DNA of 63,478 bases, filler included, from an uncultured Methanosarcinales archaeon (GTDB lineage: Archaea > Nanobdellota > Nanobdellia > Woesearchaeales > GW2011-AR9), in assembly GCA_964434885.1 (NCBI GenBank). It is 3 parts of 3 records of this genome, joined end to end, with 100 filler letters (N's around TTAATTAATTAA, not from the genome) between each part and the next. Parts side by side here need not be neighbours in the genome. Positions count along the whole stretch, not along the records: positions 13,713 to 40,589 come from CAYSWQ010000008.1; 2 more parts are not named here. One strand, 5' to 3'. The notes under the pieces were generated by a model. It saw nothing but the letters and a program-made list of their open reading frames with translations, made no database searches and was not told the DNA's origin. The position numbers were made by a program, and so were the translations under genes. How positions within the stretch are numbered: position 1 is the first letter of the stretch; each line of letters begins with the position of its first letter. Below are positions 36,475-40,589 of this stretch, in pieces.

Positions 36475-36660
36475 TTAATTATAAAAATCTTTTAGTTCAC
36501 TTTCGTAGCAGCAACCGCACCATTTTCCAGTTGGTTCTTTAACTTCTAATTTTGTTTTTAAGTTGTTGAATATTGTCTGGTTTTTTGGTTCTGGTTTTTG
36601 TTTACCTAATACTTTTTTGATATACATTATTTCTGTTTTTTCTAGAGTTACTTTTGTCAT
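36475..36660 (-). CDS. Small hypothetical protein with WCGCC motif
   Basis: 61 aa; GGGAGG SD upstream. Confidence 0.7.
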   Translation of the reverse strand: MTKVTLEKTEIMYIKKVLGKQKPEPKNQTIFNNLKTKLEVKEPTGKWCGCCYESELKDFYN

Positions 36661-36737
36661 TTTTTGTCCTCCCTATTTTGTTTTTTTGAGTAGTTTGTGT
36701 GGTTTTTGTTTTGAGACATAGTTTAGTTTATTATAAT

Positions 36738-36758
36738 TTGTTGTAGAAAACACAACAA
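36738..36758. promoter_or_regulatory. Inverted repeat, putative TrmB-family operator
   Basis: TTGTTGT-N7-ACAACAA between divergent genes, just upstream of the TATATAAA box of the TrmB gene. Confidence 0.45.
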
Positions 36759-36800
36759 CAAAACAAAAAATATATAAATGCTAAAGTGCTTAGTAATTAA

Positions 36801-37517
36801 ATGGTAAAAATTGAAAGAGTTTTGGAAAATTTAGGTTTTAGTCCTAATGAAATTAAGATTTATTTAGCACTTAATGATCATGGTTCTAGTAAGGCAGGTA
36901 AAGTCGCTAAGATTGCTAAAATTGATCGAAGTAGTTGTTATAATTCATTGCAACGTTTGATTGAAAAAGGTTTAGTCAGTTATGTTTCAATAGGGGAAGT
37001 AAAATGGTTTCAAGCAACTGGACCAAAGAAATTATTAGATTATCTAAAAGAACAAGAAGAAGATGTTAAAGAAATACTTCCTGATTTAGATGCTAGACAT
37101 AAAGCTAGTAAAATTAAAGGTCAAGTTAGGTTGTTTAAAGGGATTAAAGGAGTGAGAACCATTTTACAAGATATTTTGAGAACTGGAAAAAATAATTTAA
37201 TATTTGGAAATGAAAACCAATTGGAAGAAAGGATGCCAGCTTATCAAAAACAATTTGTTCGACAATTAAAAGAACAGAAAATTTTTGTAAAAGAAATTGT
37301 GCGAGAAGATAGAGATAATCCAACTTCTAATCCAAAACAAACAAGATATGTTTCTAAGTCAGTTGAATCTCCAGTGGTTACTAATATTTATGGAGATAAG
37401 ATTGCTTTGATTATTTGGACTGATGAACCAGAAGGGATTGTGATAGAAAACGAAGCAGCTGCTAAAGCTTATCGTAGTTACTTTGAATTTATGTGGAAGC
37501 ATGCTCGGAAGAAGTAG
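36801..37517 (+). CDS. TrmB family transcriptional regulator
   Basis: LGFSPNEIKIYLAL...YNSLQRLIEKGLV wHTH; C-terminal IYGDKIALI...FEFMW. Confidence 0.9.
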   Translation: MVKIERVLENLGFSPNEIKIYLALNDHGSSKAGKVAKIAKIDRSSCYNSLQRLIEKGLVSYVSIGEVKWFQATGPKKLLDYLKEQEEDVKEILPDLDARHKASKIKGQVRLFKGIKGVRTILQDILRTGKNNLIFGNENQLEERMPAYQKQFVRQLKEQKIFVKEIVREDRDNPTSNPKQTRYVSKSVESPVVTNIYGDKIALIIWTDEPEGIVIENEAAAKAYRSYFEFMWKHARKK

Positions 37518-37561
37518 ATTTTAGTAACTTTTTTAAATTATCTTTATTATGGTTCTTTGTT

Positions 37562-37646
37562 GCCCTTGTCGTCTAGTGGATAGGACGCAAGCTTGCGGAA
37601 TGATTGTGAAAAGCTTGTAACCGGGGTTCAAATCCTCGCAAGGGCA
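37562..37646 (+). tRNA. tRNA-Arg(GCG) with a 13-nt canonical (37/38) intron at 37599-37611
   Basis: Acceptor GCCCTTG/CAAGGGC, D arm GTCT..GGAC, anticodon stem CAAGC/GCTTG around TT-GCG-G[AATGATTGTGAAA]A, T arm CGGGG-TTCAAAT-CCTCG; CCA not encoded. Confidence 0.93.
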
Positions 37647-37743
37647 ATTTGTTACTATGGTGTAGTATGTAAACTAAAAATTTATAAAGGAATTTAACTT
37701 TGATTGTAAATGGTGGTTTTCTAAAGGTGTTTTGGATAGGAAT

Positions 37744-38583
37744 ATGCCTAGAAAAAAACATAACATTACACCTGAAATTATTGAACAAGTTAGAGCAATG
37801 TATGATGAAGTAGATGATAATGGGAAAAAAGTTTGGTCTCAAAGAAGGTTGGCTAAATATTTGAGGTTACCAAGAACATATATATCTGCATTTGTAAACG
37901 GTTTTGCATCACCACATGAATACCGAACACATTTAGCTAAAAAAAGGGGTTTTGCATCACTTACAGAATACCGAACACATCTAGCTAAAGAAAAAGGTTT
38001 TGCATCAAGACATGAATATCAAACACATTTAGCTAAAGAAAATGGCTTTCCATCACTTACTGAATACCAAACAGATTTGGCTAAAGAAAAAGGTTTTGCA
38101 TCACCACATGAATACCGAACACATCTAGCTAGGGAAAAAGGAGAAGAAGAACAATTTTTACTGAAAAAAAGATTACGTTTTAGTTTAGGGGACGTATTAA
38201 AAAGGTACACTTTAGATGGTAAGGTTCAATCTGCTCGTGAATATGGGATAGATTACTCAACAATTTGTGAATCTTTAGAAGAAGAAGCAAAAGAAGTTCA
38301 TGGTAAAACTTTGGAAGACATGAGAGAAGAGGGGTATCATGTTGACCATATTATCCCCGTAAGTTTTTTTGATTTAGAAAACCCAGAAGAAGTTAGGAGA
38401 TGTTATCATCCAAGTAATCTTAGATGGTTACCAGGGAGAGAAAATATGAGTAGAAGTAATCGTTTTAGAGAGGAAGATTTAGAGGTATTAGTAAGCATAC
38501 CTATGGCAGTATTTCCTGAACAAATGATGGGTTGTGGAGAATTATTACAAAAATATCCTCATTACTTTGTTCATACCACATAA
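37744..38583 (+). CDS. HTH + 5x16-aa repeat + HNH endonuclease, paralog 1
   Basis: WSQRRLAKYLRLPRTYIS HTH-like segment; GFxSxxEYxTHLAKxx repeats; YHVDHIIP...CYHPSNLRWL...ENMSRSN. Confidence 0.85.
   Translation: MPRKKHNITPEIIEQVRAMYDEVDDNGKKVWSQRRLAKYLRLPRTYISAFVNGFASPHEYRTHLAKKRGFASLTEYRTHLAKEKGFASRHEYQTHLAKENGFPSLTEYQTDLAKEKGFASPHEYRTHLAREKGEEEQFLLKKRLRFSLGDVLKRYTLDGKVQSAREYGIDYSTICESLEEEAKEVHGKTLEDMREEGYHVDHIIPVSFFDLENPEEVRRCYHPSNLRWLPGRENMSRSNRFREEDLEVLVSIPMAVFPEQMMGCGELLQKYPHYFVHTT
37900..38139 (+). repeat. Intragenic 48-bp tandem repeat x5
   Basis: Unit GGTTTTGCATCACCACATGAATACCGAACACATTTAGCTAAAAAAAGG and variants. Confidence 0.95.
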
Positions 38584-38710
38584 AAATCAAGTTAAGTTAG
38601 TTAAATTTGGCAGTGAACCTTTTTGGTCAAATCCTCGCAAGGGCAAATTATTACTTTTATGTAGTGAATTAATAGAAAGTTTTATAAATGCGTTTCTTTT
38701 AATCTCAATT

Positions 38711-39289
38711 ATGTTACTTAAAGCATACCAAAAAGCATTAGGAGATGAAAAACAAAGACAACCTTTCTTGGATTTAATTACTGAACAAGGAATTCCAAAA
38801 TATGTTAAAAAAATAATTTATCAAGATGAAGACAAAGGTAAAGACATTTATAGGTCTCTTATGGGTGTTGTTTGTAACCCTCTTGCTTTATTACATATCC
38901 CTAAAACTTCTTCAACAATAAAGGTATATCCTTTTTCTTTTTCTGGACAAATACATTGTAATTTGGATGATTTTCTTTCAACTTTAAAAGACCATGAATA
39001 TATTCATGCTAGAGAACATTATTTTACTCCAAACAATATAGGATATTCTATTGCGGCAAATATTTATTTACGTTTAAGAAAATTTGGTGTGGATTATCAT
39101 TTTAGTAATGAGATGTGGATACAAGCTGCAGAACAGGAATTAAGAGCATGTAATAATCAAATTGAAACGTTTCCAGAAAGAAATTGTTCTGATAAATTCA
39201 GAAAGTGGGTTTTTGATCGAAGAAGAGATAATGAAAGAGAAATAGAATCACAATTAAGTTTAATAGCAAAAAGAAAAAAAGAAGAGTGA
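38711..39289 (+). CDS. Hypothetical protein with HExxH zincin-like motif
   Basis: DHEYIHARE...EQELRA. Start placed at MLLKAY, about 22 nt after TTTATAAA. Confidence 0.65.
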   Translation: MLLKAYQKALGDEKQRQPFLDLITEQGIPKYVKKIIYQDEDKGKDIYRSLMGVVCNPLALLHIPKTSSTIKVYPFSFSGQIHCNLDDFLSTLKDHEYIHAREHYFTPNNIGYSIAANIYLRLRKFGVDYHFSNEMWIQAAEQELRACNNQIETFPERNCSDKFRKWVFDRRRDNEREIESQLSLIAKRKKEE

Positions 39290-39390
39290 ACTTTTTTTAG
39301 TTAAATTATTTTGATGACAATTAAATTTATAAAAAAGAGCTAATTATTAATTGATAGGGTGGTTTTTCTAAAGGAGTTTTGGATAGGAAT

Positions 39391-40482
39391 ATGCCTAGAA
39401 AAAAACATAATGTTACACCTGAACTTATTGAAAAAGTTAGGGCGATGTACGAAGAAGTAGATGATAAAGGTAAGAAGGTTTGGTCTCAAAAAAGATTAAG
39501 TGAACATTTAGGATTACCAAAACAATATATAACTGCATTTGTAAATGGTTTTGAATCTCATAGTGAATATAGGACTCATAAAAATAAACAGAATGGTTTT
39601 TCATCTTATACAGATTATTTAACTCATTTAGCTAAGAAAAATGGTTTTTCATCACCACATGAATATCGACAACATATGGCTAGGAAAAATGGTTTTACAT
39701 CAGAAACTCAATATCGGATTCATCTAGCTCAAGAAAATGGTTTTACATCAATATATGAACGTAGACTTCACCAAATTGGTAAGAGGGGTTTTAATTCATT
39801 TGGTGAATATCAAACTCATTTGGTAAAGAAGAAAGGTTGTTCATCATCACATGAATATCGTACTCTTCTAGCTCAAGAAAAAGGTTTTGAATCAACATAT
39901 AGTTATCAAGTTCATCTAATTCAAAATAGTATTTTTCCATCAATGCATAGTTACTTAGATCATTTAGCTAAAAATAATGGTTTTTCATCAGTATATGAAT
40001 ATCAACTCCATTTAATTAAAAAGAAAGGTTTTAAATCATATTCAGAATACCGATTTTATCTAGCTAGTAAGAAAGGTCTTGAAGATATTGTCAGATTAAC
40101 AAAAACATTAAGAAATAATTTTAATCGAGCATTAAAAAAATATACTTCCACTGGTAAAATTCAATCTGCTAGCAAGTATGGGATTGATTATTTAGCAATT
40201 TGTGAATCTTTAGAAGAAGAAGCAAGGCAAGTTTATGGTAAATCTATTAGTGAGATGAGAGAAGAAAAGTATCATGTAGATCATATTATTCCAGTAAGTT
40301 TTTATGGTTTAGAAGACCCAGAAGAAGTTAGAAGATGTTATCATCCTAGTAATCTTAGGTGGTTATCTGGAGAAGAAAATATGAGTAGAGGCAATAGTTT
40401 TAGAGCAGAAGATTTAGAAGTGTTGGTTAATTTACCAGTGGAAATTAATCCAAAAAAATGGCTTGCTGAATTGTGGCAGTGA
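39391..40482 (+). CDS. HTH + 11x16-aa repeat + HNH endonuclease, paralog 2
   Basis: Same N-terminal and HNH domains as 37744-38583, with 11 repeats. Confidence 0.85.
   Translation: MPRKKHNVTPELIEKVRAMYEEVDDKGKKVWSQKRLSEHLGLPKQYITAFVNGFESHSEYRTHKNKQNGFSSYTDYLTHLAKKNGFSSPHEYRQHMARKNGFTSETQYRIHLAQENGFTSIYERRLHQIGKRGFNSFGEYQTHLVKKKGCSSSHEYRTLLAQEKGFESTYSYQVHLIQNSIFPSMHSYLDHLAKNNGFSSVYEYQLHLIKKKGFKSYSEYRFYLASKKGLEDIVRLTKTLRNNFNRALKKYTSTGKIQSASKYGIDYLAICESLEEEARQVYGKSISEMREEKYHVDHIIPVSFYGLEDPEEVRRCYHPSNLRWLSGEENMSRGNSFRAEDLEVLVNLPVEINPKKWLAELWQ
39547..40074 (+). repeat. Intragenic 48-bp tandem repeat x11 (diverged)
   Basis: Exact 16-codon periodicity, from GFESHSEYRTHKNKQN to GFKSYSEYRFYLASKK. 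Confidence 0.92.
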
Positions 40483-40589
40483 AATTTATTGGTTAAATTG
40501 ATGCGATAGAACTAATTCAATTTAGGAAATATAGCTTACAGAACATACTTTTCTTCTAAAATTAACGAAAGCTTTATAAAGAAAATACC

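Follow-up and report, generated by a model that had tools for sequence, protein, structure and literature searches.

A partial tRNA-Arg copy beside tandem repeat-HNH nuclease genes in an uncultured archaeon: a possible scar of microhomology-mediated duplication

How does the 3′ end of a tRNA gene come to be repeated, base for base, on the far side of a nuclease gene? The question is raised by a locus of an uncultured archaeon of the Woesearchaeales (GenBank GCA_964434885.1), whose genome (G000) comprises 1,069,348 bases on 66 contigs and is about 92% complete by estimate. The stretch that we analyzed, hereafter the window, is 63,478 nucleotides long, and its positions 13713-40589 are one contig of 26,877 nt (C8), which stops at 40589, where N spacers begin. 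On this contig a tRNA-Arg gene is followed by a gene for a repeat-containing HNH nuclease (HNH-1), a copy of the tRNA end, an open reading frame of another type (ORF199) and a second, paralogous nuclease gene (HNH-2, 39391-40482), which was overlooked by the original prediction. That prediction saw in the first part of this row a self-contained 1-kb element that spreads by homing or by an integrase supplied in trans. We favor a different reading, at a probability of roughly 45%: the 20-nt repeat would not be the att pair of a mobile element but a scar, left when a unit made of the 3′ part of the tRNA and a nuclease gene underwent a local, microhomology-mediated segmental duplication, and the scar would lie downstream of tRNA-Arg in a short series of small units, in tandem, each with a promoter, a gene and a terminator.

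The duplicated tRNA end and the gene between its copies

The tRNA-Arg(GCG) gene lies at 37562..37646 on the plus strand, as do all the features of the row, and is the single tRNA recovered with the Rfam model RF00005 (37562-37646, 51.8 bits, E 3.1e-8). ARAGORN run with its intron option identifies it as tRNA-Arg(GCG), the anticodon loop of which is interrupted by a 13-nt intron (~37600-37612); the default settings of ARAGORN return 0 tRNA genes in the window. Such introns are among the archaeal features of the genome, alongside TATA-type promoters and TrmB, and homologs are labeled as Nanoarchaeia or Pacearchaeota; the organism is presumably a member of the DPANN.

The core of the repeat begins in the T-loop and extends one base beyond the 3′ end of the tRNA (copy A, 37628..37647), and all 20 nt of it recur at a spacing of 999 as a partial tRNA 3′ end (copy B, 38627..38646) that begins with the hexamer TCAAAT. 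Both the exactness of this match and its span within the tRNA are as originally described. A search of the whole genome with a 19-nt core pattern at up to 2 mismatches returns 2 matches, copies A and B, and a reversed control returns 0. The identity has a sharp onset, with only 2/20 positions shared in the 20 nt upstream of the two cores, and is continued downstream by a diverged repeat, which on the side of copy A (37648..37688) runs into a TATA-like box placed by eye at ~37682-37689 and on the side of copy B (38647..38688) includes a TATA-like box and runs into ORF199. In register, the two flanks agree at 14/19 positions past the tRNA (P~3e-4) and at 23/36 when extended (versus 38647-38682; P~1e-4), as judged by comparison with 200,000 AT-rich pairs drawn at random from this genome, which bears out the mismatched similarity noted before; only this in-register test is significant, a free local alignment of the flanks with the core removed giving a z of 1.3. 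The divergence of the flanks amounts to 26-36%, and blastn aligns copies A and B over 62 nt at 79%. From ~37678 onward, the sequence downstream of copy A matches the promoter of HNH-2 (blastn 438 nt at 76.7%; alignment z 9.7). Copy A is, accordingly, B-like over 37628-37688 and HNH-2-promoter-like from 37678, with the switch at the shared TATA box.

We traced both junctions in Logan contigs from 4 public runs (2 studies), one of which is possibly the source sample. The left junction is bridged by contigs of 4/4 runs (e.g., 37482-37758 and 36500-37763) with 0 differences and the right one by contigs of 3/4 runs (38092-38996, 38130-38996 and 38549-38810) with 0-1 differences. Since independently assembled contigs of several runs bridge the junctions, the duplication is real and misassembly is excluded as its source.

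HNH-1 (37744..38583, 279 aa) is, as originally reported, the sole sizeable open reading frame (ORF) between the copies; two short ORFs of 89 and 63 aa overlap it in antisense. It is predicted to combine an N-terminal helix-turn-helix (HTH) domain, five helical repeats of 16 aa each (37903-38142) and a C-terminal HNH nuclease domain of the His-Me finger type. The Pfam matches to HTH_3 and to HNH families (HNH_3/HNH_4) are all below threshold, and among PHROGs the protein matches endonuclease VII/HNH families (PHROG 1035, 59 and 826), with an E of 2.6e-7 for PHROG 1035. The His-Me finger residues D201, H202, N225 and N234 are invariant in an alignment of 13 homologs. An AlphaFold (AF2) model with a pLDDT of 84.4 displays the N-terminal HTH, followed by five 11-residue helices with 5-residue loops that correspond to the 16-aa repeats, a long linker helix, and a beta-hairpin and helix at the HNH motif. 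With the whole model as the query, Foldseek retrieves nothing from the PDB at E<=1e-3, and a wide fold search with VIA recovers only weak matches, to HTH domains (Z~5, residues 1-69) and to beta-beta-alpha-metal nucleases (Z 4.1); the sole match in a sequence-profile search of the PDB is the lambda repressor (E 0.47).

Two nuclease paralogs and the joint at copy B

HNH-2 (39391..40482) encodes a 363-aa paralog with 11 repeats (39550-40077), stands in tandem and in the same orientation 1.6 kb downstream of HNH-1, and is followed by the contig end after 107 nt. Its promoter and 5′ leader (39314..39390) are homologous to 37667-37743 (76%). A 14-row tree of the C-terminal domain places the two proteins as sisters (UFBoot 84/SH-aLRT 93; branches 0.38 and 0.57), and separate acquisition of the two genes is not supported by this tree. 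Their dS of 0.54-0.74 and dN/dS of 0.24-0.33 indicate an old split and two genes under purifying selection. The A and B flanks differ to a degree similar to that of the paralogs at synonymous sites (pS 0.385-0.47).

A 35-nt block over the two start codons is identical (37729-37763 = 39376-39410) and stands out from the rest of the pair, which is near-saturated at synonymous sites; it could represent a conserved operator or leader, or gene conversion. Through this block, a contig of one run (X5) joins 37728 to 39376, skipping 1,647 nt, and contigs of the other runs stop inside it; the X5 joint could be a collapse allele or an artifact of the k-mer path.

The 3′ tail of HNH-1 (38603..38626) is homologous to that of HNH-2 (40469..40498), which ends in GGTTAAAT and then gives way to sequence unrelated to the tRNA core (5/14). 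Aligned from 38603-38632 and 40469-40498, the tails agree at 24/30 positions, up to and including a hexamer that reads TCAAAT in the first and TTAAAT in the second. Past this hexamer, copy B goes on as the tRNA 3′ end and the HNH-2 tail is unrelated to it (6/20), and the same hexamer, within the T-loop, is where the identity of copies A and B starts (37628). As the tail homology (24/30) ends where the tRNA identity (20/20) begins, comparison with the HNH-2 tail identifies the right-hand repeat as a joint of an HNH tail to the T-loop within a 5/6 microhomology. By the same comparison, the HNH-2 tail appears never to have carried the tRNA core: the identity of 5/14 over the rest of the core has a P of ~0.002 for a copy decayed to 75%, and with this value after HNH-2, the idea that tandem integration left decayed cores behind ORF199 and HNH-2 is rejected.

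We propose that the ancestor had, a short way behind tRNA-Arg, a unit with a free-standing HNH nuclease gene of the phage type. The TCAAAT of the T-loop and a TTAAAT ~15 nt past the HNH stop codon would have recombined, unequally or illegitimately, and so duplicated the stretch from T-loop to HNH tail, such that junction B would read HNH tail, tRNA 3′ end and flank. A second exchange at the shared TATA box would then have generated the present order of tRNA, HNH-1, core copy, ORF199 and HNH-2, and both nuclease genes would have been retained by purifying selection as they diverged, including in the number of repeats (5 versus 11). This order of events is reconstructed from the arrangement, and the nuclease may itself have promoted the rearrangement by DNA breaks of its own making, by analogy with SegB in phage T6.

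Between the two nuclease genes lies ORF199 (38690..39289), which has an HExxH motif (HEYIH) and matches no Pfam or PHROG family. It has matches in 4/41 family genomes (G000 included), and its nearest named Atlas clusters are metallopeptidase-like, with weak scores of 0.86-0.88. ORF199 ends with the tail motif of both HNH genes, of which it holds the third copy (39285..39306): the pattern AGTGAA-N7-RGTYAAAT, defined post hoc, has 3 matches genome-wide, at the 3′ ends of HNH-1, ORF199 and HNH-2 (38612-38632, 39285-39306 and 40478-40498).

Several points weigh against a local duplication. The core of copy B is exact (20/20) next to a flank at 64%, which has a P of ~0.02-0.04 if only copy B drifted at half the flank divergence, a pattern that points to constraint, to gene conversion or to an exchange of later date. 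Integrases classically target the part of a tRNA gene between T-loop and 3′ end. The position of ORF199 between the HNH units means that at least two events are needed, and a plain duplication gives no explanation for the 21-nt tail motif that this unrelated gene shares with them. The sister grouping of the nucleases is moderately supported and its branches are long, the hexamer TYAAAT is common in a genome of 32% G+C, and no intermediate or ancestral arrangement was found in any relative examined.

A precedent for the proposed duplication is described in phage T6, where a 718-bp tandem unit of tRNA-Tyr and segB arises via microhomology of the 5′ end of the tRNA with the 3′ end of segB, and where, according to the same source, the amplification depends on SegB and on recombination functions (PMC13096335). 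The two cases share a free-standing nuclease gene beside a tRNA, unit limits set by microhomology of the tRNA with the nuclease gene at its 3′ end, and a nuclease C-terminus altered at the joint. They differ in that the T6 enzyme is a phage GIY-YIG nuclease whose recent, multi-copy ladders include the complete tRNA and are under selection for tRNA dosage, whereas the archaeal locus has an HNH enzyme in a cellular genome, two old and diverged copies, a duplicate of only the last 20 nt of the tRNA, and an unrelated gene between the copies.

Integration, homing and other explanations

The best-surviving alternative, which we nonetheless consider unlikely, is that a tyrosine recombinase placed the 999-bp unit at the T-loop-to-3′-end site of tRNA-Arg, the unit being an att-flanked mini-element that lacks an integrase of its own. 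At present the unit would be either mobilized in trans or a stranded relic, and possibly one of several related cassettes stacked at the site. The sublocation within the tRNA is canonical for such insertion and the core is exact, and a PF00589 search of the genome finds five tyrosine recombinases. All five are on other contigs, leaving the contig of the locus, as originally noted, free of a recombinase up to its end at 40589; this counts against the explanation, as does the lack of any visible cognate element. There is no third core in the 92%-complete genome, an IMG/VR search with the core pattern gives 0 matches, and no partner element was found in the genome whose integrase would act on this att site. 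Signs of tRNA-directed recombination elsewhere in the genome, namely a recombinase unit with 118-nt repeats and a partial tRNA-Val copy (both described below), speak for integration. Two features of the joint speak against it: the HNH-2 tail matches the start of the core at 5/6 with no core after it, which a pre-formed attP does not predict, and the similarity past the core is unexpected between an attP and an attB.

Archaeal elements integrated in tRNA genes, as described in PMC9897764 and PMC6563490, are bordered by one complete tRNA and one partial copy of it (PYG1, for instance, by repeats of 44 bp), and these sources also report partial tRNA copies at attR and tandem re-use of sites. Our locus is like them in its direct repeat of the tRNA 3′ part, with the intact tRNA at one end and the fragment at the other; the elements described there span 2.6-23 kb and encode an integrase, the smallest, a cryptic one of 2.6 kb, included, whereas the unit here has 999 bp and one nuclease gene. 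A further parallel is offered by the cis-mobilizable elements (CIMEs) of streptococci, which are described as retaining attL and attR while lacking an integrase (PMC6323972). Like them, the archaeal unit has att-like flanking repeats, which here are putative att sites, and no integration genes inside; CIMEs as described there are bacterial, linked to conjugation and dependent on a resident integrative and conjugative element that shares the att site, and no such partner was found here.

In contigs of the 4 runs, which drop rare variants, we found no joint that skips the 999 bp and no back-joint of the kind expected from a circle, and therefore neither the excised junction nor the 999-bp circle for which the original prediction suggested a search. 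This absence of empty and circular forms weighs against an att-flanked element and, as lack of presence/absence polymorphism, against homing as well. An empty site was also sought in relatives, across 41 family genomes (G000 included; genus-level relatives are not among them), 23 of which are matched by the tRNA query. Only in one of these, G032, does TrmB (78% identical) adjoin tRNA-Arg(GCG) as in G000, and there is no HNH gene at that place. The genes downstream of the tRNA in G032, for an HD-domain protein and a 197-aa protein, are unrelated and have no counterpart in G000; hence this is not a clean empty site, and such a site is lacking in the set. The region downstream of tRNA-Arg is, in other words, not syntenic with the closest relative, which is in keeping with integration. 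In G032 itself (C4:72647-75735), TrmB and tRNA-Arg are separated by an antisense ORF of 129 aa, and the HD-domain gene ends directly at the tRNA 3′ end; this arrangement shows that both flanks of tRNA-Arg are variable within the family.

Homologs of HNH-1 likewise show no link to tRNA genes. We scanned 97 loci from metagenome and genome collections and 6 from relatives for tRNAs; 88 hold a match to the HNH part and 8 hold none. The close full-length loci hold a tRNA in 0/2 cases, any tRNA is present in 5/88 loci with an HNH-part match, the nearest being 204 nt off, and a tRNA-end duplicate accompanies 0/5 of these. This weakens the reading that the nuclease targets tRNA, and with no empty or circular form and the core present nowhere else, the self-contained 1-kb element is not upheld.

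That HNH-1 homes is an improbable explanation of the locus. In that case, HNH-1 would cut the 3′ end or flank of an unoccupied tRNA-Arg gene and repair would copy the cassette in, with the split target protecting occupied alleles; as the cassette brings a replacement 3′ end for the tRNA, the insertion would be silent. The invariance of the catalytic residues in 13 sequences and the purifying selection on the genes fit this explanation, and the homologous but diverged flanks are compatible with recombination-based copying. So does the distribution of the family, which is sporadic and has viral affinities. The full-length architecture is rare, being found in ~ten metagenomic proteins and in 1/401 genomes of the order, four others of which (G160 among them) match it in part only, and viral contigs frequently hold the HNH domain by itself, with 248 relatives among 598 IMG/VR pattern matches and nearest Atlas clusters that are 96-100% viral. 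There is also precedent in T4 segB, described as a homing endonuclease gene that stands free between tRNA genes and whose target lies in the tRNA region (PMC2988022). Target duplications, however, are not a normal product of homing, HNH-2 has no tRNA repeat, and the homologs are not near tRNAs. The same source describes free-standing HNH homing endonuclease genes, mobA-mobE, in T4-like phages (PMC2988022). With the genes described there the locus shares the single HNH gene with its own promoter, the intergenic slot, the viral affinities and the patchy distribution; it differs in having predicted DNA-binding parts at the N-terminus (HTH and 16-aa repeats), and the flanking tRNA-end duplication is foreign to those genes. 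The locus, in sum, fully matches none of the compared systems, be they integrase-encoding elements, CIMEs or free-standing HNH genes.

We give equally little credence to a larger integrated island that would extend from the tRNA to past the contig end, with its integrase and outer att site unassembled and the inner copy as a by-product of tandem integration. The contig does stop 107 nt after HNH-2, the exact HNH-2 protein is also found on a public contig of 38,993 nt (HNH-1 variants likewise occur on public contigs of 5,120, 5,199 and 10,196 nt), three recombinase genes lie within ~3.5 kb of the starts of other contigs, and the downstream genes are poorly conserved. Against this, the tail of the contig has no overlap with any other contig of the assembly, the assembly has no further copy of the core, and the G+C content is only slightly raised (0.33-0.345 versus 0.27-0.30). 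Moreover, the integrases of tRNA-targeting islands usually adjoin the tRNA. Finally, a casposon or other transposon is rejected, as no inverted repeats were found at the ends of the 999-bp unit and Cas1 (PF01867) has 0 matches in the genome (the control was positive in 7/14).

Three other sites of G000 bear on recombination in this genome. At C25:6085-7798, an ORF of 179 aa and a small tyrosine recombinase of 205 aa share a very compact unit of 1,596 nt, which is bounded by perfect 118-nt direct repeats. At C9:14155-14340, part of the 3′ end of tRNA-Val(TAC) reappears ~60 nt past the gene, with 23 exact nt at a spacing of 103; the interval is devoid of genes, and the pair may be either what remains of two att sites or the product of a small duplication. 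At C33:5460-5615, tRNA-Ser(TGA) has a duplicate of its first 15 nt ~60 nt upstream; this contig also holds a tyrosine recombinase at 783-1247.

The 16-aa repeat and the meaning of the duplicated end

The repeat shared by the two nucleases is a 16-aa helix-loop unit with the consensus G-F-x-S-x-x-E-Y-x-x-H-L-A-x-x-x. Across 103 repeats, 4 of them false pattern matches, from 13 proteins, G1, F2, S4, E7, Y8 and H11 are near-invariant, and positions 5 and 6 are the most variable, with entropies of 3.10 and 2.62 bits. The residue pairs at these two positions in HNH-1 read PH-LT-RH-LT-PH. The five-repeat stretch retrieves 302 representative clusters at E<=1e-3, 111 of them at E<=1e-10, and a Pfam scan of 60 repeat clusters finds HTH-type domains in 27 and HNH in 1. 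No Pfam family covers the repeat, the matches to CheR_N and zf-C2H2_4 being short and driven by the repeats, and no paper on such a unit turned up in literature searches, which did not target it specifically.

We regard a role of the repeat as a DNA-reading module as plausible. Repeats of the transcription activator-like effector (TALE) type are 33-35 aa long and have two adjacent hypervariable residues. The arrays described here resemble them in their tandem, near-identical repeats, in the adjacent hypervariable pair and in a repeat number that varies between homologs; they are unlike them in the length of the unit, which at 16 aa amounts to one helix and a loop, and show no sequence or detected fold similarity to them. 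One may go further and suppose that proteins with HTH, repeat and HNH parts are modular nucleases with a TALE-like code at positions 5-6, and that HNH-1 cuts the T-arm or 3′ flank of tRNA-Arg and drives homing or repeated local duplication of a cassette that brings a tRNA 3′ end of its own as replacement; we view this chain of suppositions as a long shot. If it were true, a selfish nuclease gene would have a new silent seat in an archaeal tRNA gene, one that requires no intron, intein or integrase. Nothing was found that links the repeat array of HNH-1 to the tRNA locus, a link that the original prediction had considered possible. The hypervariable pair, for its part, makes the 16-aa repeat a candidate for a new DNA-recognition module.

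Another arrangement of repeat and nuclease is seen on a metagenome contig (L013, 1-1957), the first 92 nt of which equal its last 92 nt, which makes it circular or a tandem array. The same promoter-like block stands in front of two of its reading frames, a repeat-HNH gene that is much extended at the C-terminus and a separate ORF that consists of repeats only, and its promoters look bacterial, like those of the candidate phyla radiation (CPR).

A partial copy of a tRNA 3′ end is usually taken as proof of insertion by an integrase. The locus described here, which displays a tail-to-T-loop joint and carries no mobility signal, suggests that a duplication beside a nuclease gene can yield or mimic the same signature, and this is of relevance to the automated calling of islands and prophages in small, poorly sampled archaeal genomes. 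Should our favored reading hold, it would extend to the genome of an archaeal cell the joint duplication of a tRNA and a homing endonuclease gene, which has so far been in print only for phage T6.

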